Origin: Acaryochloris thomasi RCC1774
GTDB taxonomy: Bacteria; Cyanobacteriota; Cyanobacteriia; Thermosynechococcales; Thermosynechococcaceae
DNA: 32,000 nt
Assembly: GCF_003231495.1 (NCBI RefSeq)
Contig: NZ_PQWO01000005.1
Span: 30,001 to 62,000 of the forward strand
Direction: 5' to 3'
The first letter of the stretch is position 1. Every line of letters starts with the position of its first letter. Shown here piece after piece: positions 560-28,548 of the stretch. A program made the translations under genes and the position numbers. The notes under the pieces were generated by a model. That model was not told the DNA's origin, did not search any database, and worked only from the letters and a program-made list of their open reading frames with translations.

Positions 560-1858
560 CTAGCGATATTGAGCTGTTTGAATGTCTCTAAGGCGGGCTT
601 CAGACCGCTTGAAACGATCCATTTGCGCTTCAAAAAACGCGCGGTTGGCCTCTAGATGCTTGGGGTTCGGATCATCAAGGGGATACAGCAGCGCACACCG
701 TAGCGCCTGAATAACAGCGGAGGTAACGGTGTACATCGATCGCTGAAAGCTAATACCCAACTGAATCAGGGTATCGTCGTCGCCGCGACAGTGCTGCTGA
801 TAGTAGTCCACCAGATAGTCGGGCAAGAAATGGAGCATATCCTGCATGAGCTGGGTGGGAGGAATCCCAGCGGTGCCAACGGGGAAAACATCGGCGTATA
901 AAATGCCGTAGTGAAACTCTTTTTGCTGCTCGGGAACTTGCCCCACCTGAGCGTTATAAGATTTCGTGCCCCGAAACGGAGAGGTGCGGTAGAAAATGGC
1001 TTCCACGTAGGGAAGTGCGGCTTCGTAGAGCCACATGAAGCCTTTTGATTTAGGGATGATTTCGTAGCACTCGCCTCGGATGTATACATGGTGATAGATG
1101 GGACGACCTGCGATCTCAAAGATCCCATTCACCAAAAAGTCCATCGCCTCTGGCACGGTGGTGAGTTTGCTTTCATCGTATAAATCAGACATCTCAAAGA
1201 ACACTGGGGCCATCACCTCCCAGAACAGACCCAAATTTGAGTAGTACGACATCTGCCGACACTGCTCTAAAAACATCTCTGGGAAGAGCTTATAGAGGCC
1301 CAACATAACAGGGTTGCGAGCGAAGAAAGCGCGAATCGCTTGGTCCGCATTGGCTCGATATTCGTCAGTATCGAGAAACGCATCGAACTGACCCATGCCC
1401 ATATCTCGACCGTGCCAGAGCATCGCTCGCATACAGGACTCAGCGAACTCCATATTGATGCGATCGTGCCAGAGGTGGTGGAGCAGCTTCGGCATTTTCC
1501 GGGTTTCGCCGGATTCCATGAAAGCCAGCAGCTCAGGATGGGCGGTGGCTTCTCCACGCCAGACTCGAAGGTCGGCCCCCTCCCCTGCATAGTGGTTGGG
1601 CAGATCGAGGTAGGACTGCGGCAGAAAGTATTTGAAGAAGGGGAGCGGTTCTAGAAAAACGTGCTCAGCAATGTAGAGCAGATCGCGCCAATAGAAATCC
1701 ATTGGCACAGCATAGGCTTTGTAGAGACCGATAATCTGCATCAGGTTCGCGGGAGAGTCAGGCAGCATTGCGCCCCCTGCTTCAAGGCGATGGACAACCT
1801 CAGCAAACTCATGGTTTGAGGGTGGCAGAGTAGCGGGTGGCGATGCGGCTTGAGTCAT
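560..1858 (-). CDS. cupA: CO2 hydration protein CupA (ChpY) of the NDH-1MS complex
   Basis: The 432-aa ORF has ChpX/ChpY-type sequence (for example LPFFKYFLP and YWRDLLYIAEHVF). Its size fits CupA rather than the shorter CupB. It lies downstream of ndhF3/ndhD3. Confidence 0.85.
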   Translation of the reverse strand: MTQAASPPATLPPSNHEFAEVVHRLEAGGAMLPDSPANLMQIIGLYKAYAVPMDFYWRDLLYIAEHVFLEPLPFFKYFLPQSYLDLPNHYAGEGADLRVWRGEATAHPELLAFMESGETRKMPKLLHHLWHDRINMEFAESCMRAMLWHGRDMGMGQFDAFLDTDEYRANADQAIRAFFARNPVMLGLYKLFPEMFLEQCRQMSYYSNLGLFWEVMAPVFFEMSDLYDESKLTTVPEAMDFLVNGIFEIAGRPIYHHVYIRGECYEIIPKSKGFMWLYEAALPYVEAIFYRTSPFRGTKSYNAQVGQVPEQQKEFHYGILYADVFPVGTAGIPPTQLMQDMLHFLPDYLVDYYQQHCRGDDDTLIQLGISFQRSMYTVTSAVIQALRCALLYPLDDPNPKHLEANRAFFEAQMDRFKRSEARLRDIQTAQYR

Positions 1859-1973
1859 GGTGTTTGTTAAGTGTGGATCTCAAATTTGAGGTAGAAGTTT
1901 TGACTTGGTGTTCGTTCCTTTAGAGCGATTGTTGTATATACATAGGCTGGGATAGGACTTTTGGGCTTTGCAC

Positions 1974-2006
1974 TGGCCCCCCCGGCCCCCCAATTCTGGG
2001 GGGAGA
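1974..2006 (+). repeat. 33-nt C6/G6 hairpin repeat, copy 2
   Basis: This is an exact 33/33 copy of 511-543. It ends 6 nt from the stop codon of the DUF559 ORF. Confidence 0.9.
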
Positions 2007-2012
2007 TTGTCT

Positions 2013-2408
2013 TTATTGGGTTGATGCTTGGTTGTGAATAGTCGCTAAGACCGTCTGGAGATTTTGCTCTACGGCTTTATTGCTAAAGCGGATTACTGTG
2101 TAGCCGTACCTTTCTAAATGCTCAGTTCGGGCTTCGTCATAATCCTGTTGCTGTTGATGAACCCCGCCATCAATTTCTACGACTAGTTGGCAAGAGGGGC
2201 AGTAAAAGTCGACGATGAAACGACCAATGGGATGCTGACAGCGAAATCGAAGCCCACCTAGTTTCCGATTTTTTAGAGCCTGCCATAACTTAGCCTCTGC
2301 TGGCGTGAGTCTGTTTCGCAGGCGACGAGCTGCAAGCTCAGTCTCTGGCGTCGTACCGCGAATCCTGTCGTAAGACTTATCCATCAAAAGCTGAGTTTCC
2401 ATTACCAT
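2013..2408 (-). CDS. DUF559 domain protein (Vsr-like PD-(D/E)xK endonuclease fold)
   Basis: The 131-aa ORF shows the typical DUF559 pattern: TPAEAKLWQALKNRKLGGLRFRCQHPIGRFIVDFYCPSCQLVVEIDGGVH...RTEHLERYGYTVIRFSNKAV. Confidence 0.85.
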   Translation of the reverse strand: MVMETQLLMDKSYDRIRGTTPETELAARRLRNRLTPAEAKLWQALKNRKLGGLRFRCQHPIGRFIVDFYCPSCQLVVEIDGGVHQQQQDYDEARTEHLERYGYTVIRFSNKAVEQNLQTVLATIHNQASTQ

Positions 2409-2419
2409 GAGACCTTCCG

Positions 2420-4039
2420 CTATTCTCCCCCCAGAATTGGGGGGCTGGGGGGGCTAAGCGCAATACTTCGAGAATCCTCTAATTGAATTGCATGAGCCGA
2501 GGTCGCCAGCGCAATACTCTGAGCATCCACTACCGAACCTCTGCTGTCCAACCCACGACTAGGAATCTCAGCCACAACACCCACCTGCGGCACCGCAGCA
2601 ACGATCGCATCTGCCGTATTCTCGCTCCAGCGCGTCAACCACATCGGCTGCAGTCCCAAAATCAAGATCATGACCGTGAGAATCAATGCTGGGGCGCGTT
2701 CTGGCACTGTCACTTTAGGATAGTAAGCCGTTTGACTATCCAAACGACCAAAGCAGGTGCGATTAATCAAAATCACGAAATATACCGCCGTCAAACCCGA
2801 AGCAATAATGCACAGCAGCGTCGGTATCGGGAAACGCGCGAAGCTGCCTTGAAAGACCATGTACTCAGCAATAAAGCCTACGAGTCCCGGAATTCCAGCA
2901 CTCGCCATGCCCGCGACCACTAGCAATGCACTCACCATCGGTAAGCCTCGCACGGGGTTCATAAGACCGTTTAGTTTGTTCAAATCGCGGGTGCCCACTT
3001 TCGTTTCCACCAGGCCAAGGAGGTGAAACAACAGGGCCAGAATTAAACCGTGGCTGACCATTTGTGCGATCGCACCCGTCAAGCTCAAGGTGTTGCCCGC
3101 CGCCGCCGCCACCAGAATGTAGCCCATGTGCCCAATCGAACTGTAGGCCACCATACGCTTGACGTCGGACTGTGCGATCGCACTTAACGCCCCATACATA
3201 ACGCTAAACGTTCCAATCGCGGCTAAGCCGGGAGCGACCAAATCCCATGCTTCTGGGAAAAGCTGCAGACAAAATCGAATCAGCCCGTAAGTTCCTAGTT
3301 TCGCCAACACCCCCCCCAACAAGATGGCAATAGGCGGGGAAGCTTCAACATACACATCCGGTTGCCAAGTATGCAGAGGAACAAGCGGCGTCTTGATGCC
3401 GAACCCCACCAGCAAGATCGTCAGCAAGACTAGCTGCAGATTTCGCGGAATTGTGGTGGTATCGAGATCGATGTATTCAAAACTAGTGCTGCCGCTCAAC
3501 CAAGTCAGGCCCAAAAAGCCCAGCAAGATCAGGATGCCGGAGAGTGCCGTGTATAAAAGGAACTTCGTGGCTGCATATGATTTTTGCTCACCGCCCCAGA
3601 TTGATACCAGCAGATAAAAGGGAATCAGCTCTAGCTCGTAGAACAAAAAGAAGAGCAGCAAGTTCTGCGCCAGCAAAGACCCAGCCACGCCAATATTGAC
3701 GATAAAAATAAGCGAATAGTACAGCTTCGGACGCTCTAGCTCCGCAGGGCTACTATAGATCGCAATCCAGGTGAGGACACTGCTCAACATCAGCAGCGGC
3801 AGCGATAACCCATCCACCGCCAGCGAATAGTTGAGACCCAAATCAGGCAGCCAAGCCAAGACAGTTGTGAGCTGCAGCCCTGAGACAGCAGTTTGAAACT
3901 GGCTCAAGACATAAACGGTCCAGACCAACAACAGACCCGCAATCCACAGGGCAAGCTGCTTAATGTGCTGAGCCTGAGGCCAAGCAATAATCAGCAATGC
4001 ACCAGCCAAGGGAATTAGAAGTAGAGTGCTTAGCGTCAT
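2420..4039 (-). CDS. ndhD3: NAD(P)H-quinone oxidoreductase subunit D3 (NdhD3, NuoM-like antiporter subunit)
   Basis: The 539-aa polytopic ORF is of the NuoM/NdhD type. It sits between ndhF3 and cupA. The C-terminal roughly 40 aa are hydrophilic and the frame ends inside repeat copy 3. Confidence 0.85.
   Translation of the reverse strand: MTLSTLLLIPLAGALLIIAWPQAQHIKQLALWIAGLLLVWTVYVLSQFQTAVSGLQLTTVLAWLPDLGLNYSLAVDGLSLPLLMLSSVLTWIAIYSSPAELERPKLYYSLIFIVNIGVAGSLLAQNLLLFFLFYELELIPFYLLVSIWGGEQKSYAATKFLLYTALSGILILLGFLGLTWLSGSTSFEYIDLDTTTIPRNLQLVLLTILLVGFGIKTPLVPLHTWQPDVYVEASPPIAILLGGVLAKLGTYGLIRFCLQLFPEAWDLVAPGLAAIGTFSVMYGALSAIAQSDVKRMVAYSSIGHMGYILVAAAAGNTLSLTGAIAQMVSHGLILALLFHLLGLVETKVGTRDLNKLNGLMNPVRGLPMVSALLVVAGMASAGIPGLVGFIAEYMVFQGSFARFPIPTLLCIIASGLTAVYFVILINRTCFGRLDSQTAYYPKVTVPERAPALILTVMILILGLQPMWLTRWSENTADAIVAAVPQVGVVAEIPSRGLDSRGSVVDAQSIALATSAHAIQLEDSRSIALSPPSPPILGGE
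2424..2456 (-). repeat. 33-nt C6/G6 hairpin repeat, copy 3 (inverted orientation)
   Basis: The reverse complement, TAGCCCCCCCAGCCCCCCAATTCTGGGGGGAGA, matches copies 1 and 2 at 31/33 positions. It lies 15 nt upstream of the DUF559 start. It encodes the last 11 codons (SPPSPPILGGE) of the ndhD3 ORF. Confidence 0.9.
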
Positions 4040-4126: not shown

Positions 4127-5986
4127 CTACGACAGCAGTGGATAGGCCAACGCCAGAATCAAAAGAGTGACGCCAATTACAATCGACAGCAAGTAAAACT
4201 GTCCCGCTCCAGTGTTGTTGTACTTCAAAGTCTGTCCCCCAAAAAGCGTCGCCAGTCCCACGCCGTTAACGGCTCCATCAACGAAGATGCGGTCAAACCA
4301 GTTCACCAGACGCGAGACCTGATTCACAGCCAAGATAATGGTGCCGCGATAAATCTCAGCGGTGTATAAATCATTAGCAAACGCCTTCTGGAGCTGCGGC
4401 CAAAATAAGCGAATGGGGCGAGGCGTCAGCTTACCGATGTATAAAACACCACCGATGCCGCCGCCCAATAGACAGGACCAGAGCAGCAAAAGAACAAAAG
4501 GCTTTTCTAGCATTGCCCAGTCGGGCAGCGCTGACGCCTGATTTAAGATCATCGGCACATGAAGAACCACGCCTGATAAAACCGTCATCGGCACCACCAT
4601 CGGCCACAAAACCTCAGGAGATCGCGCCATCATTGCATGGGGCTGCCCCATGAATACCAAGCCAAACAAACGAGCCAAACTCAGCGTTGTCAAGGCGTTC
4701 ACCAACAGCACCACGCCCACCAATAGCGGATGATCAGTCCATAAATCAGTCAGAAGCCTGAGCAAAGCCCAAAAGCCACCCAGAGGTGGTAGCCCCACTA
4801 GACCCGCAGCCCCCACTAAAAACGCAAGGCCAGAGATCGGTCGTCGCGCCCAAACGCCACCCATTTGAGTCACGTCTTGGGTAATATTGCTCCAGATAAT
4901 CGTGCCGGTGCTCATGACCAGCAGCGCCATCGAAACGGCGTAAGTAAACATCAGCAGCAGGGCTGTATCGGTATGCCCAGTTCCCACTGCGATAAAGACA
5001 AGGCCCATGTAAGCGCTGACGCTGTAGGAGAGGGCGCGCTTGAGATCAATCTGTGCGATCGCAACCAAGGTAGCCCCAACAGCCGTCGTTGCCCCCACCC
5101 ATACCACTGCGGCAGAGGCAACAGGCGACAGCGCCAAAACCGGCTGCACCTTAATCAAGACCCAGGCTCCAGTACCAACCACCACCGCATTCCGCAAAAT
5201 ACTGGCGGGGAGCGGCCCCTCCATCGCTTCATCAAGCCACAGATGCAGCGGGAACTGCGCGCATTTGCCCAGCGGTCCTGACATCAACGCCAGTCCCAGC
5301 AGCGTTAAAGTCAATGGCGCGACGGAAGCCTGATCGGCCCAGGTCGCAAGATCTCCATAGTGCCAAGTACCGGCCAGCGGCCAGAGCGCCACCACCGCCA
5401 TCAGCAGAATCAGGTCACCCACCCGCTTGGTCAAGAAAGCATCTCTTGCGCCTGTGACCACCAGCGACTGATTAAACCAGATGCCCACCAGTAGATAGGT
5501 GCCCAACGTCAAAATCTCGAGAATGACGTAGCTAAAAAACAGTGAGTTGAAGAGCGCCAAAGCGCACATCCCAGCTTCAAACAGGCTGATGGAAGCGTAG
5601 AATCTAGCCCATCCCCAGTCCATCTCTAGATAGCCAACGGCATAGAGCTGCGCCAAGATATTGAGACCCGTTATGGTTGAGATCGCGCCTATCGTCTGAC
5701 TGGAATACTCCAGCGGCAAAATAAGCTGCAGATCAGACACCGTCAGCCAGTTTACCGAAATCTCCTGGGCGGGTTCTCCCCAAATGGCGGTCAACGCCAG
5801 CAAACTATGAACAAAGCCCACACCTGCCGTCACGATATTGATATATCCCGCCGGACGCGGCCCCGTTCGCCGAAACCCTGCCGGAGACCAAAAAACCGAC
5901 GCCATCCCGCTCAGCAGCGTATAGATCGGAATCCAGTAGACCGTACTGAGACTCGCTTGCTGAACCGACTCCAATGCTTGGGACAT
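4127..5986 (-). CDS. ndhF3: NAD(P)H-quinone oxidoreductase subunit F3 (NdhF3, NuoL-like)
   Basis: This is a polytopic NuoL/NdhF-type ORF and the first gene of the cluster. I chose the internal ATG at 5986 (MSQALESVQQ..., 619 aa) over the track start at 6079. The extra 31 aa look non-native, and about 615 aa is the usual NdhF3 length. Confidence 0.85.
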   Translation of the reverse strand: MSQALESVQQASLSTVYWIPIYTLLSGMASVFWSPAGFRRTGPRPAGYINIVTAGVGFVHSLLALTAIWGEPAQEISVNWLTVSDLQLILPLEYSSQTIGAISTITGLNILAQLYAVGYLEMDWGWARFYASISLFEAGMCALALFNSLFFSYVILEILTLGTYLLVGIWFNQSLVVTGARDAFLTKRVGDLILLMAVVALWPLAGTWHYGDLATWADQASVAPLTLTLLGLALMSGPLGKCAQFPLHLWLDEAMEGPLPASILRNAVVVGTGAWVLIKVQPVLALSPVASAAVVWVGATTAVGATLVAIAQIDLKRALSYSVSAYMGLVFIAVGTGHTDTALLLMFTYAVSMALLVMSTGTIIWSNITQDVTQMGGVWARRPISGLAFLVGAAGLVGLPPLGGFWALLRLLTDLWTDHPLLVGVVLLVNALTTLSLARLFGLVFMGQPHAMMARSPEVLWPMVVPMTVLSGVVLHVPMILNQASALPDWAMLEKPFVLLLLWSCLLGGGIGGVLYIGKLTPRPIRLFWPQLQKAFANDLYTAEIYRGTIILAVNQVSRLVNWFDRIFVDGAVNGVGLATLFGGQTLKYNNTGAGQFYLLSIVIGVTLLILALAYPLLS

Positions 5987-8239: not shown

Positions 8240-9211
8240 ATGAACCTGCCCCCACGCAAAACCCTGGGCTTCTTCCCCACACCGTTGATGCCACTGCCCC
8301 GACTCTCACAGGCGCTCGGAGGACCGCAAATTTGGATCAAGCGCGACGACCAAAGCGGGCTAGCGCTGGGGGGCAACAAAACCCGAAAACTAGAATTTCT
8401 CATGGCTGAGGCGTTGGCCCAGGGTTGTGACACCGTGATTACGGCAGGAGCCGCTCAATCCAATCACTGTCGCCAAACAGCGGCAGCGGCGGCAGCTCTA
8501 GGGCTAGGCTGTCACTTAGTTCTAGGCGGCGAAGCCCCGGCACAGCCCACCGGAAATTTACTCCTCGATCAGCTCTTCGGCGCGACGCTGCACTGGAGCG
8601 GTGCATCGCGAAAAGGAGAACAAATTCCTGCATTAATGGAGGTGCTGCAGCAGCAGGGCCATACACCCTATCCGGTCCCCTACGGAGGGTCAAATGCAAC
8701 CGGGGCTGTGGGCTTTGTCGCGGCGGCGATGGAATTACGCGAACAGTTGCGATCGCTGGAGCGAGGGTTTGACGCGATCGTATTTGCCTCTAGCTCTGGC
8801 GGCACGCAGGCGGGATTAATGGTGGGACAAGCCGTCACCGATTTGCAGACACAGCTAATCGGCATCGGCATTGATAAGGCAGATGCCGCCACATCGGTCG
8901 CTCAAATTTCTCAATTAGCAAAGGAGACCGCCCAAAGCATCAGCCTGACTCACTACCAGCCTCAACCCATCACCGTTAATCTGGATTATCTCGGTGATGG
9001 CTATGGCGTTGTCAGTGACCGGGAGCGAGCAGCGATCTCGCTAGTCGCTCAGTTAGAGGGCATCTTGCTCGATCCGGTCTACACGGGGCGAGCCATGGGC
9101 GGTCTTTTGGATCTCATTGACCGTCAAATTCTGAAGTCAGGACAGACGGTACTGTTTTGGCATACAGGGGGCACACCGGCCCTCTTTAGCAGCGCTGGGA
9201 GCCTGCTTTAG
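8240..9211 (+). CDS. PLP-dependent D-cysteine desulfhydrase / ACC deaminase family protein
   Basis: The 323-aa ORF has the GGNKTRKLEFL PLP-lysine motif and AGAAQSNH, as in DcyD and ACC deaminase. Confidence 0.75.
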   Translation: MNLPPRKTLGFFPTPLMPLPRLSQALGGPQIWIKRDDQSGLALGGNKTRKLEFLMAEALAQGCDTVITAGAAQSNHCRQTAAAAAALGLGCHLVLGGEAPAQPTGNLLLDQLFGATLHWSGASRKGEQIPALMEVLQQQGHTPYPVPYGGSNATGAVGFVAAAMELREQLRSLERGFDAIVFASSSGGTQAGLMVGQAVTDLQTQLIGIGIDKADAATSVAQISQLAKETAQSISLTHYQPQPITVNLDYLGDGYGVVSDRERAAISLVAQLEGILLDPVYTGRAMGGLLDLIDRQILKSGQTVLFWHTGGTPALFSSAGSLL

Positions 9212-9216
9212 ATTTT

Positions 9217-9333
9217 CTACAGATTATTTTGACGCTCTTCTTGCTTTACTAGATAAGTAATAATGCCGAAAGCAACTAGGAACTCAACAGCGAGTGTTGT
9301 CCAAAAGATAGCGGAAGTAGGCTCAGTAAACAT
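9217..9333 (-). CDS. Possible 38-aa single-pass membrane peptide
   Basis: This ATG-initiated ORF, MFTEPTSAIFWTTLAVEFLVAFGIITYLVKQEERQNNL, is below the track's size cutoff. It has one hydrophobic helix followed by a charged tail. It lies in an otherwise empty 290-bp spacer. Confidence 0.3.
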   Translation of the reverse strand: MFTEPTSAIFWTTLAVEFLVAFGIITYLVKQEERQNNL

Positions 9334-9503
9334 AGTTTTAACTCGGTACTTGCGAACGGTCTCATTCTATTTAATTCTGCCCAGAAAAGAATGAGAAAGC
9401 GTACGTGGATGCACCCAATTTTTCTAAGAAAAATCGGTTTGGCTTGAAGATTCACGAAGCAATTGTGAGGTTGTGTGGTGAAGCCTTGCGTTTTGTAAGG
9501 GAA

Positions 9504-10025
9504 CTAGAGTCCACCGACCAGCATTAGGGGCCATAGGATCAGGCCCAGAAGAGCCAGACCAGAGACTCCTAGCGTGAGAGACAAGCCCACCGCAGCCTGC
9601 ACCCAACTAAGCTGATGAACTTGACGCACCGAGCCAGCCAAGGTAATCAATGTGCCGATTAGAATGCCGAGGGTAAAGAGGCTACCGAGGGTGGGGGAGA
9701 GATGCTTGGATGCGATCGCACTTCCTGACAACAGCAGCGGCCACAGCCCTCGAACAACCGCCTGAAAAGTCTGTCCGCTGGTTCCCTGACCGCCCAAAAG
9801 CTGAGCGCAGAAATGTAGCGACGTTGCTAACCAATAGCAGCCCAGCCCCCCCGCCAACACAAACAGCAGCAGAATGAGCATCAACCCAGAGGTTCCAGCA
9901 TGGAAGACACCCGCAGTATTGAGCGCCAGAACCAGGACCGTCAGGCCGCCAATCATCAGGCTGATAGCAGCCGTTCCCTGACTGTCTCTGGGTCTAAAGA
10001 GGGTTGTATAGAACGTATTCAACAT
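9504..10025 (-). CDS. Multi-pass membrane protein (possibly Yip1-like)
   Basis: The 173-aa ORF has about 5 hydrophobic segments. It starts 4 nt downstream of the sppA stop, so the two are probably co-transcribed. Confidence 0.55.
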   Translation of the reverse strand: MLNTFYTTLFRPRDSQGTAAISLMIGGLTVLVLALNTAGVFHAGTSGLMLILLLFVLAGGLGCYWLATSLHFCAQLLGGQGTSGQTFQAVVRGLWPLLLSGSAIASKHLSPTLGSLFTLGILIGTLITLAGSVRQVHQLSWVQAAVGLSLTLGVSGLALLGLILWPLMLVGGL

Positions 10026-23699: not shown

Positions 23700-25711
23700 A
23701 ACGTCACGTTGCTAGCCTCTGCAGCCTTGCCCTCACCCTCTGGGGCGTCCAGACCGGACTATTGCTGTGCGCCATCCCCATGATTCTGCTGCTAGAGGGC
23801 CGTCATATTATCCAGCAGCGCTGGGATGTCCCCGTGCAGGATCTCAAGCGCCTTGCTCAGCTCTGCGGTCTTATCTTTGCTCTCTTTCTCGTTTTTCTAT
23901 TCATCACTCAGCCCTCATTTTCGCTGATCTATCGCCTGCTACAGTGGCTACCCATTTGCGTTTTCCCCTTTGTAGCCGCCCAAACCTATGCCACCCATTT
24001 TTCGGCGTCCTTCCGGAGTCTATTTACTCGGTTCTATGCCCCCCGGACCAAACTGCGACAAAAGCCGATTAATCTCTACTATCCGTATTTCGCACTCTGT
24101 CTCGTCGCCGCCAGCGCTACGAACTGGAACGGCCCAATTTTCTATGGGGTCACCGTCGGTCTGATTGCAATTCTGCTCTGGTCACGGCGTCCGCAGCATT
24201 CAACGCCGGTGCTTTGGATCTGCCTGATCGTGCTGGCAAGCAGCCTGGGATTTGTGGGACATCTGCAGCTCCATCAACTCCAGGCCAAACTGGAACAGCA
24301 GACTGCGCCATGGCTGAATAGCTTGACGGGTGAATCGGTTGATCCATACCAAAGCATTACCCAAATGGGCAGTATTGGTTCGCTCAAGCAGTCCAATGCC
24401 GTCGTCTTTCGGGTGGCAGGCGATCGCAACTCTTTTCCACTGCTACTGCGAGAAGCCACGTACAACAAATATGGTGCTGGCTCTTGGGTCGCCCTCCAGT
24501 CTAAATTCAGGCGCATCAGGACTTCAGCTAAGGGAATCTGGAAGCTCAGCAACGCCGCTCCCCCCTCTGATTCAATGACGGTGACAGCCCGCCTAAGCGG
24601 CGGCAAAGGGATCCTAAGACTGCCGGACGGAACCGCCGAGATCAGCCAGCTTCAGGTCAAGCAGCTGGAGCAAAACCAGTACGGCACGGCCAAAGTAATC
24701 GGGAAATCTGGACTGCTCCGCTATCAGATACAGTTCAATCCGGCCCAGTCTGAAGATGCTGCACCAACGGACGCCGATTTACAAATCCCAAAGACCGAGC
24801 AGGCCGCCGTTGAGCAAACGCTGCAGACCCTCAACACTGCCGGGAAGTCTGAGACTGAGGTAGTGAATCAGATCTCAGCTTTCTTTCAAAGAGATTTTGA
24901 ATATTCTCTTGAGTTCTCTAAGTCCCAAAAGTCCCAAACGCCGCTGTCGGCTTTTCTGCTCGATCATAGATCGGGGCACTGCGAGTACTTTGCTTCAGCT
25001 ACGACGCTCTTACTGCGCGGTGCAGGGATTCCGGCCCGTTATGCGGTGGGCTATTCGGTTCATGAATTTAGCCCGCTAGAGCAGCAATATGTTGTCCGCA
25101 GTCGCAATGCCCATGCCTGGGCCATGGCGTACATCAACGGCCATTGGCAATCGGTGGACACAACGCCGCCCGACTGGACGGCTCAAGAAGATGCAGCAGC
25201 ATCTCCGCTTCAGGTTCTTTCAGATTGGTGGTCGTTTTTGCGATTCCAGCTATCGAATGGGCTACAGCAGCTTACGCAAGGCAAGATTTGGATTGGCGTT
25301 GCGATCGCACCTTTTATTCTCTTTCTATTCTGGAAGTGGGTTCGTAAGTTTTTTGGGTTGCGATCGCGATCAAAAGAAACCACACCCTCAACTCCAATTG
25401 CCCAGACCGTCAGAGCAGGAATCGACTCAGAGTTTTATCAAGTTGAGAAGCGCCTAAACGAACTCAACCTACAGCGCGCCGAATCTGAGTCTTTACAACA
25501 GTGGATAAAACGACTACAGGTACACCTTACAGCCCAACAATTAGAGACATTGCAGCAGATCAAAAAGCTGCACTATCGCTACCGATTTGATCCACAGGGC
25601 CTTGAGCCAACAGATCGTGAAACCCTCCGATCTCTAAGCTATCTTTTGCTCGATCAATTAAAGATAGAATTCGCTGGCCCGCAAGATCCATCGATTAAGA
25701 ATGCACTCTAA
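23696..25711 (+). CDS. Transglutaminase-like membrane protein (TgpA-like)
   Basis: The start at ATG 23696 overlaps the DUF58 stop as ATGA. The N-terminal domain is polytopic. The transglutaminase core has Cys (GHCEYFASATTLLLRGAGIPARY), His (NAHAWAMAY) and Asp (SVDTTP), followed by a further transmembrane helix and a C-terminal tail. Confidence 0.85.
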   Translation: MKRHVASLCSLALTLWGVQTGLLLCAIPMILLLEGRHIIQQRWDVPVQDLKRLAQLCGLIFALFLVFLFITQPSFSLIYRLLQWLPICVFPFVAAQTYATHFSASFRSLFTRFYAPRTKLRQKPINLYYPYFALCLVAASATNWNGPIFYGVTVGLIAILLWSRRPQHSTPVLWICLIVLASSLGFVGHLQLHQLQAKLEQQTAPWLNSLTGESVDPYQSITQMGSIGSLKQSNAVVFRVAGDRNSFPLLLREATYNKYGAGSWVALQSKFRRIRTSAKGIWKLSNAAPPSDSMTVTARLSGGKGILRLPDGTAEISQLQVKQLEQNQYGTAKVIGKSGLLRYQIQFNPAQSEDAAPTDADLQIPKTEQAAVEQTLQTLNTAGKSETEVVNQISAFFQRDFEYSLEFSKSQKSQTPLSAFLLDHRSGHCEYFASATTLLLRGAGIPARYAVGYSVHEFSPLEQQYVVRSRNAHAWAMAYINGHWQSVDTTPPDWTAQEDAAASPLQVLSDWWSFLRFQLSNGLQQLTQGKIWIGVAIAPFILFLFWKWVRKFFGLRSRSKETTPSTPIAQTVRAGIDSEFYQVEKRLNELNLQRAESESLQQWIKRLQVHLTAQQLETLQQIKKLHYRYRFDPQGLEPTDRETLRSLSYLLLDQLKIEFAGPQDPSIKNAL

Positions 25712-25800
25712 AGCCCATCAACATCTCTTGTTAAGATCAATGCAGTCTGAGCAACAGGCGTTTAGACAACGTATACCGACGTTATCTCTGCAAACATCGT

Positions 25801-26301
25801 ATGAATTCCACCTCTACCCTCAAGCAGCTGATCGCCCATCCCATCTCATCTGAATTATTTCAGCCCTTTGGTCAGGTCATTTTTCCCAGCGCTGACGGTG
25901 CAGCCTACGGCCCTCAAGATGCCCAGCTCCAGCTTAGCAACGGCACACCCCGGTTTTACATCATGCGGCTAGACGCCAAAGGTCGCCAATTCCATACGAT
26001 CACACGCCATCAGCAGTGTACACAGTGCCTCGGATCTTTAGGCGGTCAGGACTGGCTGATGGCCGTTGCACCGCCTTCAGAAGGCAAGCCTAATCCTGAT
26101 GAGATTGTGGCATTTCAGATTCCTGGCAACTGCTTTATCAATCTCAAGATGGGCACCTGGCACGCTGGCCCCTACTTTGAGCAAGCCGCCATTGATTTTT
26201 ACAATCTAGAACTCAGCGATACCAATATTACAGATCACGAGACCTGCAACCTGAAGGCAAGCTATGGTCTGGAATTTGAAATTCTAGGTTCTCAGTCGTA
26301 A
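25801..26301 (+). CDS. Ureidoglycolate lyase/hydrolase (AllA) family protein
   Basis: The 166-aa ORF follows the AllA pattern: L..ELFQPFGQVI, ITRHQQCTQ, AFQIPG...N...GTWH..P...IDF. Confidence 0.65.
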   Translation: MNSTSTLKQLIAHPISSELFQPFGQVIFPSADGAAYGPQDAQLQLSNGTPRFYIMRLDAKGRQFHTITRHQQCTQCLGSLGGQDWLMAVAPPSEGKPNPDEIVAFQIPGNCFINLKMGTWHAGPYFEQAAIDFYNLELSDTNITDHETCNLKASYGLEFEILGSQS

Positions 26302-26664
26302 CGAGTCTGGCTAACGCGGGCAGAATCGCTAAGCCGCAAAGATCAAAAACACCTTGAGAACAAGGGTCAACATAATACAGAACACCAGGAACCCTAGCAA
26401 AAAATTACGGATCAGCGATTTCTGTTGATGCATGTTGTAGACACAAGCGAGTAGCTCACTCATAGAATTATCCATCAGAAGCCCTAGGCAAGGCAATTCT
26501 GAAGATCTATATTGATGCTCAGAAGTTGCCTGTGATAGGCTCAATTTTGGGAAGGCAATGTTATGTAATGCAGCGGTTCAGGGTCTGTATCCCTGACTGG
26601 CGCGCTGGGGCTGAAAATTGTCTGGGTGTGTACCGCAGAGCATAGTAAAGCTGGTTCCACCCTC

Positions 26665-26731
26665 TCTCAATTAGCTCAGTGGTAGAGCGCCGGACATCCG
26701 GCGGACGTGGGTTCGAATCCCACATTGAGTA
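26665..26731 (+). ncRNA. tRNA-like gene lacking an anticodon loop (tRNA pseudogene or anticodon-less tRNA-like RNA)
   Basis: The acceptor stem is TCTCAAT/ATTGAGT (T1-T72 mismatch), the D arm is GCTC-AGTGGTA-GAGC, and the T arm is GTGGG-TTCGAAT-CCCAC. The anticodon arm is only G-CCGG-ACAT-CCGG-C, a 4-nt loop. The total is 67 nt, 5 nt short of a canonical tRNA. Confidence 0.7.
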
Positions 26732-26733
26732 CC

Positions 26734-26808
26734 GCAAAGTTAGCTCAATGGTAGAGCAACAGACTCATAATCTGTGTGGCACAGGTTCAAATCCTGTACT
26801 TTACTCCA
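26734..26808 (+). tRNA. tRNA with CAU anticodon (Met/Ile2 class unresolved), genomically encoded CCA
   Basis: The manual cloverleaf has acceptor stem GCAAAGT/ACTTTAC (C2-A71 mismatch), D arm GCTC-AATGGTA-GAGC, and anticodon arm ACAGA-CTCATAA-TCTGT. The variable loop is GTGGC, the T arm is ACAGG-TTCAAAT-CCTGT, the discriminator is T, and CCA follows. It starts 2 nt after the preceding tRNA-like gene. Confidence 0.8.
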
Positions 26809-27225
26809 CCCCAGCCCTGGGTATGGGCACCTTGTTAGGGACGAGTCCAAATGGTACGGGAGCAATCCCAAATCGGTTCAAGTCCGTGTTTTTCTCAACT
26901 CCGCTGTGCTGGCTGTTCGGCCACTGTCATCACCTGGTGGTGGCGATGGCAGCAGTGAAAGGCCAGTGAGATCGCAACTGATGATCGGTTCGAGTGTGTC
27001 CCTTCCAGTCGCTGAGTCCTTCGGGATAGGCGGCAGGAACAGCACATCTGCCAGAGGCTTGGCCAAACCTACGGGGGCGGTCGGGGGAAGGCATCTGGCT
27101 TAGTCCAGCCGGTCACAAGCGATCGCCCGCACTGACGCTGTGAACACCAGCAATAGTGGAGTTTTCAGACTAGCTTTAAATTTATTTTCAGAGACTGGGG
27201 CCAAGGGGACTGATAGAATCGCCCA

Positions 27226-28059
27226 ATGTATGACAACACCTGCAAATTTCTTGCAGAGACGTTCTCAAGTGACTTTGCAACCTGGTTGCTGGGTAAGCCT
27301 GTCCCTTTGACCAAGCTAAGTCCATCTGAGCTATCGCTGGAACCGATTCGAGCAGACGCACTGATTCTCCTGGAGTCTGAAGAGCATGTCCTGCACATCG
27401 AGTTCCAAACTGAGCCTGATGCGACAATGCCCTACAGGATGGCTGATTATCGTCTAAGAGCTTTCCGCCGTTTCCCGAACAAACAGATGAAACAGGTGGT
27501 GGTTTACCTGACTCCAACGAAGTCGAGGTTCGTGCATCAGACTGTTTTTGAGATTCCGGGCACTCGTCACGAGTTCGGGGTTGTGAGGCTATGGGAGCAA
27601 CCCACTCAACCGTTTCTCGATTCGCCAGGATTGCTACCCCTAGCTGTGCTCACTCAAACACTAGATAAGACTCAGACACTGAAACAGGTAGCTGTTCAAG
27701 CTGACTCTATTCAGGACAAGCAAGTACAAAGTAATGTGGTGGCTTCTGCTGCAATTCTGGCCGGGCTATCATTGGAGAGAAGCTTTATTAATCAGGTTCT
27801 GCGCAAGGAAATTATGAAGCAGTCTGTTATTTACCAGGACATTATTGATGAAGGGCGTCTAGAAGGGCATCGAGAGGGGCGTCTAGAAGAAAGTCAATCC
27901 CTTATTCTCCGTCAACTCAATCGCCGTGTTGGGGAGTTGCCCTTTGAACTGAGATCGCAACTCGCAAGATTATCCCTAGAGCAAACTGAAGCACTGGCAG
28001 AGGCACTGCTAGATTTTGCAGAACAGTCTGATCTTGTTGAGTGGCTAGAGAGACAGTAA
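27226..28059 (+). CDS. Rpn-family recombination-promoting nuclease / putative transposase (PD-(D/E)xK, DUF4351-type C-terminus)
   Basis: The 277-aa ORF has the N-terminal sequence YDNTCKFLAE...EPIRADALILLESEEHVLHIEFQTEPD, typical of the cyanobacterial Rpn/YhgA-like family. The C-terminus is helical (...IYQDIIDEGRLEGHREGRLEE...). Confidence 0.75.
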   Translation: MYDNTCKFLAETFSSDFATWLLGKPVPLTKLSPSELSLEPIRADALILLESEEHVLHIEFQTEPDATMPYRMADYRLRAFRRFPNKQMKQVVVYLTPTKSRFVHQTVFEIPGTRHEFGVVRLWEQPTQPFLDSPGLLPLAVLTQTLDKTQTLKQVAVQADSIQDKQVQSNVVASAAILAGLSLERSFINQVLRKEIMKQSVIYQDIIDEGRLEGHREGRLEESQSLILRQLNRRVGELPFELRSQLARLSLEQTEALAEALLDFAEQSDLVEWLERQ

Positions 28060-28125
28060 CAGCCAGCCCCGGATGCAATTTTCTAAGATATTTGCGATCG
28101 CAAACCGGGGCAAAAACTCAACTGA

Positions 28126-28548
28126 TCAAGAATCCTCAATTTTGAGCGATGTAATCTTATCGCCTTGGGCGATCGCATTGACAACATCCATATCCTCAGT
28201 TTGGCCGAAGGTGGTATGTACACCATCTAAGTGTGCCTGCGGTGCATGACAGATAAAGAACTGACTGCCGCCGGTATCTTTGCCCGCGTGGGCCATCGAA
28301 AGCGTCCCGGCCTTGTGCTTGTTGTCATTAATCTCACACTTGATGGTGTAGCCGGGGCCAGCGGTACCGGTTCCCTTGGGACAGCCCCCCTGAATCATAA
28401 AGTTGGGAATCACTCGATGAAACGTAAGGCCGTCATAAAAGCCCTTATTCGCAAGATCAACAAAGTTCTTAACCGTGTTGGGTGCATCTTGAGCAAACAG
28501 CTCCAGGTTAATGGTGCCTTTATTCGTTTCCATAATGGCGCGAGTCAT
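28126..28548 (-). CDS. ppiB: Peptidyl-prolyl cis-trans isomerase, cyclophilin type
   Basis: The 140-aa ORF has [13 protein letters not shown] and GSQFFI together with the other cyclophilin motifs. Confidence 0.9.

Follow-up and report, generated by a model that had tools for sequence, protein, structure and literature searches.

A predicted 600-nt RNA with tRNA-shaped domains in Acaryochloris thomasi, member of an apparently undescribed bacterial RNA family

The genome of Acaryochloris thomasi RCC1774 contains, at positions 26665-26808 (+) of a 32,000-nt stretch of contig NZ_PQWO01000005.1 (positions 30,001 to 62,000; henceforth the window, to whose numbering all coordinates refer unless a locus label such as L001 is given), two tRNA-like sequences in tandem, the first of which has a short stub in place of its anticodon arm. 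The initial annotation described them as two tandem tRNA-type genes. A different interpretation is favored here: both sequences are predicted to be domains of a single, complete structured non-coding RNA of approximately 600 nt (~26570-27165 (+)), which reaches ~100 nt upstream and ~355 nt downstream of the pair. The order of its parts (a three-helix domain at the 5' end, one to three tRNA-shaped domains, and a closed 3' domain) is fixed throughout a family of RNAs, the same architecture being found in more than 150 loci of at least five phyla. The combined proposal that the window encodes such a family RNA and that this RNA has built-in processing by virtue of its tRNA shape is held with evenly divided confidence.

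The tRNA-shaped domains and the RNA that contains them

Domain 1 (26665-26733 (+)) consists of a 7-bp acceptor stem (with U1.U72), a D arm, the stub, a T arm and a terminal A73-CC. Its acceptor, D and T arms are intact, as initially described: the Rfam tRNA model RF00005 matches 26665-26731 with 59.7 bits (gathering score 29), six anticodon-loop positions of the model being reduced to one nucleotide; G18G19 and the T-loop consensus accompany the three arms, as in a tRNA; and RNAfold predicts a cloverleaf for the domain alone, with a CCGG/CCGG stem and an ACAU loop. ARAGORN does not call domain 1, only domain 2. Where a canonical tRNA has an anticodon arm with a 5-bp stem and a 7-nt loop, domain 1 has a 4-bp stem and a 4-nt loop (CCGG-ACAU-CCGG, 26690-26701 (+)). 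This tetraloop reading of the stub stands, but the alternative offered with it, CCGGA-CA-UCCGG with five pairs and a 2-nt loop, does not, as the fifth pair forms in only two of five close relatives and is unpaired in four of 14 cyanobacterial sequences. The proposed derivation of the stub also holds: a full 5-bp arm with the loop CUCAUAA is found at its position in L131, L175 and L120, and the arms of L131 and L175 indicate that the stub of the window is a CAU-type arm minus five loop nucleotides. By direct reading, the A73-CC of domain 1 is followed by G1 of domain 2 with zero spacer, as originally noted.

Domain 2 (26734-26808 (+)) is a full cloverleaf with the loop CUCAUAA, U73 and an encoded CCA. 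It scores 68.8 bits against RF00005 (26734-26805; gathering score 29), is called by ARAGORN as a tRNA-Met with anticodon CAU (26734-26808 including CCA), and carries U33, A37 and G18G19. The peculiarities first attributed to it, namely a C2.A71 mismatch, U73 and the lack of initiator features, are evident on direct reading. These two are the only matches to the Rfam tRNA model or by ARAGORN in the 32 kb, with no other tRNA in the window, and the flanks are those of an ordinary cyanobacterial chromosome (a MoxR-DUF58-transglutaminase cluster, a ureidoglycolate-lyase-like gene, an open reading frame (ORF) of the DUF4351/Rpn family, a cyclophilin gene and a DUF4915 gene), so the kinship with mobile tRNA arrays that had been suggested for the pair is not sustained.

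The pair is present in four more genomes (L001, L002, L062 and L063), retrieved as syntenic relatives by way of homologues of the ureidoglycolate-lyase gene; the flanking housekeeping genes are syntenic in these relatives, and L003 and L036, a second contig of the same sequence as L002, were counted with it once. The stub has the same length in all five close genomes, CCGG-NNNN-CCGG, with five different loops (ACAU, GCAC, UCAC, AAAA and AGAC), and its stem pairs covary, four of five doing so among 14 cyanobacterial relatives. Over the same relatives, 96.3% of the cloverleaf cells of the alignment are paired, compared with 35-42% in slid controls (in which the pairing partners were shifted along the alignment and the paired cells recounted), and 20 of 42 pairs are compensatory. 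For the acceptor, D and T helices of domain 1 the paired fraction is 98-100%, and compensated pairs are seen in two of these, the acceptor and T stems. The loop CUCAUAA of domain 2 is essentially invariant in the five close genomes, and L062 has a compensatory change from G-C to A-U in the T stem of this domain.

Beyond the five close genomes, the shape of the domains is maintained with little regard to their anticodons. The triplet CAU, found in domain 2 in the window's clade and in L087, L131, L175 and L118, is the commonest in cyanobacteria and probably the ancestral one; elsewhere domain 2 has GUU (in Nostoc/Anabaena sp. PCC 7120), AAU, UCU, CAG or GAU. At the top of the domain 2 acceptor stem, seven of 13 sequences do not form pair 1-72 and six do not form pair 2-71, and the lower five acceptor pairs (AAAGU/ACUUU) are invariant across cyanobacterial relatives. 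Given that the triplet varies among orthologues and that roughly half of the sequences leave the top two acceptor pairs open, the second sequence is, as had been suspected, not a housekeeping tRNA-Met. The loop of domain 1 ranges from full CUCAUAA to assorted stubs. Domain 1 is missing from L150 and collapsed in PCC 7120, and domain 2 is missing from L120. The N73-CC that follows domain 1 is conserved, as is the N73-CCA end of domain 2, found in ten of 11 cyanobacterial lineages. This pattern shows that the stubs arose in several lineages, and that the anticodon loops are dispensable and the tRNA shape is what is kept. A 7-nt loop of another sequence, UGUAUCG, occupies the anticodon-loop position in three cyanobacterial members (domain 1 of L066 and domain 2 of L143 and L150), and its recurrence may point to a particular alternative motif and not to drift. 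An insertion of ~26 nt within the T loop of domain 1 was observed in L118 (oriented locus, ~9140-9560).

The RNA core is 87-94% identical across the five genomes, as against 37-66% at the fourfold-degenerate sites of the adjacent lyase gene and 90-96% at its second codon positions; among these genomes, synonymous sites are close to saturation. The contrast between the core and the fourfold-degenerate sites indicates that the RNA, an orphan in this clade with respect to the genes that adjoin it elsewhere (see below), is under purifying selection. The first sequence is therefore not debris, in agreement with the initial annotation: it has kept its acceptor, D and T arms under selection, and its anticodon loop is truly absent.

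In the five-genome alignments, conservation extends in a block from ~26530 to past 26975, outside of which the sequences are scrambled, and homology to distant cyanobacterial relatives reaches ~27170. The 5' three-helix domain (26563-26641 (+)) is formed by a closing stem, by a hairpin in which CAGGG pairs with CCCUG, and by a G.U-rich stem, GGCGCGC/GUGUGUA, with a small hairpin inside it. Its homology was assessed with a covariance model, R1, made from 26 non-cyanobacterial 5' domains and containing no tRNA sequence; the source alignment has 25 pairs according to RNAalifold, 13 of them compensatory. The best R1 match in the whole window, on both strands, is at 26563-26641 (+), directly upstream of domain 1 (15.4 bits, E ~0.1), and the equivalent spot is matched in L001 (E 0.01), L006 (E 2e-6) and L054. 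All 17 cyanobacterial loci examined (the window and 16 others) have a match, with E from 8.5e-9 to 0.09. In cyanobacteria 79.5% of the cells of the 5' domain are paired, compared with 19-47% in slid controls, and 11 of 25 pairs are compensatory. Assignment of the 5' domain of the window is considered secure because of its position, its strand, and the graded series of relatives with stronger matches. A second, weak R1 match (13.3 bits) in L131 (5748-5813 (+)), clipped by the end of the contig ~1.8 kb downstream of the first, could mean that this genome carries the RNA twice.

The 3' domain is closed by a long-range helix, the 5' strand of which (ACUCCGCUGUGCUGGC, 26898-26913 (+)) pairs at 15 of 16 positions, with one bulge, with the 3' strand (ACCAGCAAUAGUGGAGU, 27146-27162). 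The helix is found in 15 of 16 cyanobacterial sequences, its sequence differing between lineages. After removal of bulges by best pairing, which is a fitted step, 97.3% of its cells are paired, compared with 27-47% in slid controls, with compensatory changes in six of its 16 pairs; when the window was considered by itself, seven of 300 shuffles reached its pairing score. The 3' strand and a U-rich tail together occupy 27146-27169 (+), the likely 3' end of the RNA. A U/A-rich tail likewise follows the helix in relatives, and in those that keep a slipin gene it is succeeded at once by exact tandem operators (TGTAGTAT) of the repressor TrcR and then by ORFs for YdeI and slipin. With conserved and covarying structures on both sides, the two tRNA-like sequences are domains of one RNA, not two tandem tRNA genes. 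The ORFs at 26679-26969 and 26774-27103, which overlap this RNA, were rejected as coding sequences on the grounds of 1-2-nt frame-breaking indels between close relatives; the latter has no Pfam match.

Upstream of the RNA, a promoter-like region (26532-26569 (+)) includes an upstream element (GTGATAGGCTCAATTTT) and the -10-like hexamer TGTAAT (26564-26569). It is kept in the five genomes, with scrambled sequence farther upstream, and corresponds to the arrangement ATGCTACATT..(~13 nt)..GGTAGTAAT that precedes the RNA in other cyanobacteria; it is a putative promoter. Between domain 2 and the closing helix lies a nearly invariant linker region (26809-26897 (+)), and the ~80 nt that follow the CCA of domain 2 are the most conserved stretch of the five-genome alignment. 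The linker may include a degenerate third tRNA-like module (26858-26886), tentatively recognized by eye from a stub, GGGA-GCAA-UCCC (26858-26869), and a T-arm-like CGG-UUCAAGU-CCG (26874-26886), and not called by the Rfam scan. The module is also present in L175 and L078, is represented by a much fuller tRNA-like domain in L118, and is absent from L087, L103 and PCC 7120. The interior of the 3' domain (26914-27145 (+)) contains a long imperfect hairpin (~26921-26955) and the conserved blocks CAGUGAAAGGCCAGUG, UUCGAGUGUGUCCCUUCC, UCCUUCGGGAU and GGAACAGCACAUCUGCC.

Distribution of the family and its association with slipin genes

Members of the family occur in Cyanobacteria, Alpha-, Beta- and Gammaproteobacteria, Bacteroidota, Planctomycetota and Firmicutes. 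A scan of one genome per species for D and T arms of tRNA type spaced 3-7 nt too close to each other yielded 53 loci, at approximately 33 of which the stub tRNA-like sequence abuts a second one with a variable anticodon; these belong to Hyphomicrobiaceae and other Alphaproteobacteria, a member of the Casimicrobiaceae, Thiothrix, Flavobacteriaceae, Niastella, a planctomycete, and Shimazuella. Alignment of the abutting-pair loci reveals a structured RNA of more than 400 nt that is made up of a 5' domain, the stub domain, the second tRNA-like domain and a long conserved 3' domain. In this alignment the stub domain has G3:U70 and N73-CCA, and the second tRNA-like domain has only three to five good acceptor pairs. 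In loci across phyla the second of two tRNA-shaped domains abuts the first (within 0-5 nt), as it does in the window.

In the abutting-pair loci, a gene of the SPFH/Band-7 family (PF01145) is located on the same strand a few hundred nucleotides downstream. Its product bears the NCBI name 'slipin family protein' and is stomatin-like by sequence comparison with solved structures; slipin matches were found at 33 loci of species-representative genomes. A composite signature (motifs of the 5' domain followed by TAGCTCA) identified at least 120 further loci in a metagenome collection. Among the matches listed there, 75 loci extend for 1,500 nt or more beyond the beginning of domain 1; a slipin match is present in 65 of these 75, lying downstream on the same strand in 64, and approximately ten are orphans with no slipin match. 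Low GC content characterizes 15 of the 120 loci, again among the matches listed. The low-GC loci share with the window the 5' domain, the AAAGU/ACUUU acceptor helix of domain 2 and elements of the 3' domain, and to judge from these sequences they are clearly kin of its RNA. At locus L103, the neighboring genes are cyanobacterial housekeeping genes, and homologues of the slipin are named from Oscillatoria, Microcoleus, Nostoc, Anabaena, Chroococcidiopsis, Fischerella, Calothrix and others. The invariant 3' element GGTACGGGAGCAATCCCAAATC has no match in the metagenome collection, from which the window's clade is absent. Scans of viral contigs revealed no connection with phages: the 3' element had no match and the family signature had one (L064), which was chance-like and could not be parsed as a tRNA-like domain.

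The window's clade has the RNA without the neighbor: a slipin gene was not found by tblastn in the window, L001 or L002, and no SPFH gene was called in L062 or L063. The lineage of the window has lost the adjacent YdeI and slipin genes while keeping the RNA under purifying selection, and the downstream slipin gene is a contextual rather than a structural feature of the family. At the point where relatives with slipin have their TrcR operators, YdeI gene and slipin gene, the window has an ORF (27226-28059 (+)) for an Rpn-family recombination-promoting nuclease or putative transposase (TIGR01784, with a DUF4351 C-terminus); L001 and L062 have no Rpn-family ORF, and the RNA there converges on the cyclophilin gene. 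A defence-island or mobile-element interpretation of the family was considered and set aside, given that PADLOC found no defence-system match for either the slipin protein or the Rpn-like ORF of the window and that the neighbors at L103 are housekeeping genes.

Rfam 15 has only generic tRNA-model matches at the family loci, and no description of a slipin-associated RNA was found in the searchable literature on SPFH proteins or slipins together with tRNA-like or non-coding RNA, a search outside which subscription journals fell. The slipin-associated RNA family is therefore apparently undescribed, and it is widespread.

Not every tRNA-like sequence with a stub belongs to this family, since stubs also occur alone or in arrays with no 5' domain. 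Outside the family are three unrelated stub tRNA-like sequences detected by the stub pattern in viral contigs (L059-L061, of which L060 is in a tRNA array), and others in Levilactobacillus (L022, L024, L045 and L048), Parabacteroides (L016 and L049), Obscuribacterales (L056) and loci L009, L010, L026 and L044. Some of the non-family stubs are solitary, and others, in Levilactobacillus, are ~105 nt upstream of a tRNA-Met. R1 found no 5' domain adjoining the stub in L022, L016, L056, L009, L010, L026, L044 or L059-L061. These stubs with no 5' domain indicate that anticodon-less tRNA-like sequences are polyphyletic.

Domain 1 of the alphaproteobacterial and Flavobacteriaceae members (L011-L058; for example L014 3300-3371 (-) and L035 3999-4070 (-)) has G1-C72, a conserved G3:U70 and an encoded N73-CCA, together with a 5-bp stub that is often capped by a GNRA tetraloop; judging by its sequence, a domain 1 that bears G3:U70 could be alanylated. 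T-box-like pairing of the domain 2 triplet with the loop of a downstream hairpin was rejected, as no covariation could be seen by eye in the alphaproteobacterial alignment. In a Leptolyngbyaceae metagenome-assembled genome (L188), a gene for RNA 2'-phosphotransferase (Tpt1/KptA, PF01885; 158-562 (+)) directly precedes the YdeI-slipin genes; this short contig has no 5'-domain match, and a match to the small RNA NsiR4 (40.1 bits) at 4421-4489 (-).

The Anabaena homologue and translational stress

In Nostoc/Anabaena sp. PCC 7120 (BA000019.2) the RNA is found in a ~680-nt stretch with no called gene, between the gene of an ABC-transporter permease and a YdeI/OmdA-family gene that is followed by the slipin gene. 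R1 matches L186 2763-2831 with 26.6 bits (E ~2e-5), and domain 2 is recognized as a tRNA with anticodon GUU (64.5 bits, L186 2906-2977, corresponding to BA000019.2 ~860,747-860,818) that ends in UCCC, not CCA; any label of tRNA-Asn on it is probably wrong. Two exact TGTAGTAT motifs are located between the RNA and the YdeI gene. The flanking genes are taken from sequence to be alr0738, alr0739 and alr0740, because an NTRC-like gene two genes upstream matches all0737 and because alr0739 and alr0740 have been published as a YdeI homologue and a slipin family protein, respectively. The RNA fills most of the alr0738-alr0739 intergenic region.

These genes are part of a described response. Deletion of trcR raises expression of alr0739 72-fold and of alr0740 42-fold; TrcR binds the alr0739 promoter, at a site that resembles TGTAGTAT; and chloramphenicol induces alr0739 and alr0740 along with the trn tRNA operon and rtcB (PMC10272220). 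In an array comparison of a cvkR deletion mutant with its complemented strain, in which the changes are ascribed by the authors to erythromycin, present for plasmid maintenance, the top entry of the table is an intergenic forward probe, alr0738_igFwd (log2FC -2.41), followed in the same table by rtcB (-2.38), the L-array (-1.99), alr0739 (-1.62) and alr0740 (-1.50) (PMC9938897 Suppl. Table 2). If this probe is on the RNA, the homologous RNA of PCC 7120 is transcribed and rises with the translational-stress regulon; the probe may instead sit on a short leader of alr0739. The RNA itself is mentioned in neither of the two papers (PMC10272220, PMC9938897).

In the window the TrcR operator is not enriched (nine matches, 11.4 expected), with one weak match near the putative -10 element. 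Operator-like motifs were observed between the cyclophilin and DUF4915 genes of two relatives, as an exact TGTAGTAT in L001 (~8052) and as a tandem pair of TTTAGTAT, 10 nt apart, in L062 (~3829 and ~3839); the window has no equivalent match.

Processing, alternatives and comparison with known RNAs

For the tRNA-shaped domains, the best functional guess is still a processing signal or substrate mimic, both of which were raised in the initial annotation; a specific decoy role, also raised there, is possible but unsupported. The domains would act by shape, not by decoding. RNase P, the CCA-adding enzyme and alanyl-tRNA synthetase (AlaRS) accept substrates that have no anticodon arm, and built-in processing is favored because the features kept in the domains (acceptor stem, N73-CC(A), and the elbow of the D and T arms) match the needs of these enzymes. 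RNase P would cut 5' of each domain; a cut at G26734 would leave domain 1 with an end ...ACC, one A short of CCA, and the abutting N73-CC/N1 junction is what would be expected if cleavage 5' of domain 2 makes the 3' end of domain 1. The products of processing would be the 5' domain as an RNA of its own, the closed 3' domain, and one or two RNAs of tRNA size that end in CCA. By analogy with its homologue in PCC 7120, the RNA of the window may belong to the response to inhibited translation. A larger proposal, more doubtful than the combination of identity and processing and held only tentatively, is that the RNA reports on or buffers the state of translation or tRNA processing, for example by competing with real tRNAs for cleavage, CCA tailing, charging or binding, and thereby controls or assists the slipin/YdeI stress module. 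It would then represent a hitherto unrecognised class of large non-coding RNA, present in bacteria of at least five phyla, and the window's clade would show that the RNA has its own function apart from any adjacent slipin gene.

Several points weigh against an RNA that is processed by means of its tRNA shape in response to stress. Transcription and cleavage of the RNA of the window are predictions from its sequence; the R1 score of the window is modest when taken alone (15.4 bits, E ~0.1); and with no enrichment of TrcR operators and no slipin gene in the window, the link to stress is by homology alone. A pure cleavage signal also does not explain why domain 2 keeps a canonical U33...A37 loop with CAU invariant in the window's clade, why its lower acceptor helix is invariant in sequence, or why the proteobacterial domain 1 conserves G3:U70.

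The sequence invariance of that helix would suit an RNA that stays intact as the RNA subunit or scaffold of a ribonucleoprotein, with slipin, YdeI or another tRNA-binding protein, its tRNA shapes serving as protein-binding modules in the manner of YrlA and Ro60. The tight linkage of RNA and slipin across phyla and the large, closed, covarying 5' and 3' domains, typical of ribonucleoprotein RNAs, point the same way, as does the co-induction of the PCC 7120 homologue with rtcB, which parallels the Salmonella rsr-yrlBA-rtcBA operon that links YrlA with RtcB. Such a scaffold is nonetheless unlikely, if the least so of the alternatives: the window's clade keeps the RNA with no adjacent slipin gene, and N73-CC(A) ends at the junctions are better suited to free 3' ends. 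The conserved loop of domain 2 raises the question whether this domain is a real stress-inducible tRNA (for Met, or for Ile after lysidine modification of CAU), domain 1 being a degenerate tandem duplicate that aids processing. Domain 2 has the full cloverleaf (68.8 bits), U33, A37, G18G19 and encoded CCA of such a tRNA; its loop CUCAUAA is kept by the five close genomes, and CAU is the most frequent triplet among cyanobacteria and probably the original one. The PCC 7120 homologue shares its regulation with an operon of functional extra tRNAs, and most L-array tRNAs are aminoacylated in vivo (PMC8421152). This explanation is improbable, however, in view of the orthologous domains with GUU, AAU, UCU, CAG, GAU or UGUAUCG, the unpaired 1-72 and 2-71 in about half of the sequences (C2.A71 in the window), the deletion of domain 2 in L120 and its UCCC end in PCC 7120, and it leaves the conserved 5' and 3' domains unexplained. 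U73, moreover, is atypical for tRNAs of Met and Ile2.

Aminoacylation of one or both domains for a non-decoding role, as donor, sensor or tmRNA-like entrant to stalled ribosomes, is a distinctly remote prospect. G3:U70 is the identity pair of AlaRS, which charges minihelices that have no anticodon, and domain 1 of the proteobacterial and Flavobacteriaceae members combines G1-C72, conserved G3:U70 and N73-CCA within a family tied to translational stress; however, domain 1 of the window has U1.U72 and U3-A70 with neither G3:U70 nor any recognizable anticodon-independent identity set, domain 1 of PCC 7120 is collapsed, and ARAGORN found no tmRNA-like tag. Least probable of all, and disfavored, is that the RNA is a decaying relic, whether the leader left behind by a vanished YdeI-slipin operon or one that acts purely in cis, with pseudo-tRNAs and no present function. 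The adjacent slipin and YdeI genes and TrcR operators are indeed missing, the Rpn-family putative transposase is in their place, and homology to the close L001 and L002 stops earlier than homology to L062 and L063. Against a relic are the identity of the core (87-94%, compared with 37-66% at neighboring fourfold-degenerate sites), the compensatory changes within the clade, the confinement of variable positions to the stub loop rather than random ones, and the retention of the complete RNA up to its closing helix; against a leader, in relatives the RNA ends in a helix and U-run before a separate promoter that bears the operators.

If the family is as proposed, annotation has mislabeled part of a large RNA as tRNA-Met, tRNA-Asn or pseudo-tRNA in hundreds of bacteria, and the few large bacterial non-coding RNAs of open function gain a widespread, strongly covarying member of 450-600 nt. 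Handles for its study are the protein neighbor slipin (with YdeI in cyanobacteria), the repressor TrcR, the translation inhibitors that act as inducers, and the tractable host Anabaena PCC 7120, for which a published array shows a responding transcript. The repeated deletion of the anticodon loop from domains that keep the elbow, acceptor stem and CCA end would also constitute a natural experiment on non-decoding recognition of tRNA.

Among known RNAs, YrlA (RF02553), the RNA associated with Ro60, is similar in being a structured non-coding RNA with a tRNA-mimicking domain (D and T arms and an acceptor-like stem), in having the gene of a protein partner that forms oligomers as its neighbor, and in its co-expression with RtcB under translational or RNA-damage stress, which for the present family is seen in the PCC 7120 homologue. 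It differs in that its tRNA-like domain is single and circularly permuted, whereas here there are one to three collinear cloverleaves with unrelated 5' and 3' domains; the YrlA model matches the window with 25.5 bits (gathering score 69), spanning only the T arm of domain 1 to the D arm of domain 2, and there is no TROVE/Ro60 domain among the neighboring ORFs. The mascRNA of MALAT1 and MEN-beta (RF01684) is likewise a tRNA-shaped module, its anticodon-less arm shortened, within a longer non-coding RNA, and functions as a processing signal for RNase P, RNase Z and the CCA-adding enzyme. It is eukaryotic, however, and forms the 3'-terminal part of a long nuclear RNA, whereas processing of the RNA described here is proposed by analogy; there is no sequence relationship (16.5 bits, gathering score 42.5). 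A permissive Rfam scan of 25500-28500 returned only sub-threshold matches to YrlA, mascRNA and plastid untranslated regions, all explained by generic tRNA features.

The L-array, or trn operon, of PCC 7120 resembles the family in consisting of atypical extra tRNA-type sequences, and the PCC 7120 homologue is co-induced with it by translation inhibitors in the same TrcR-controlled response, which is the only link to such arrays and an indirect one. L-arrays have up to 43 complete tRNA genes in a plasmid or mobile context, with most of the tRNAs aminoacylated (PMC8421152); in contrast, two to three tRNA-shaped domains with dispensable anticodons are contained here in a larger RNA in a chromosomal housekeeping context. 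With tmRNA the family has in common an anticodon-less tRNA mimic that keeps the acceptor stem, T arm and CCA, a tie to translation trouble and, in proteobacterial members, G3:U70. Unlike tmRNA, which lacks a D stem, contains a tag reading frame and has SmpB as partner, domain 1 of the window has a normal D arm and U-A at 3:70, and ARAGORN found no tmRNA in the window. Both domains agree with canonical tRNAs in scoring above the gathering threshold and in having cloverleaves with covariation, but domain 1 has no anticodon loop, and in domain 2 the anticodon is unconserved and the top of the acceptor stem incomplete.

In one of the relatives, L063, a gene for an IS605-family OrfB/TnpB (Cas12f-like) protein is located directly upstream of the ureidoglycolate-lyase gene (1274-2518 (+)); it is present only there among the relatives.

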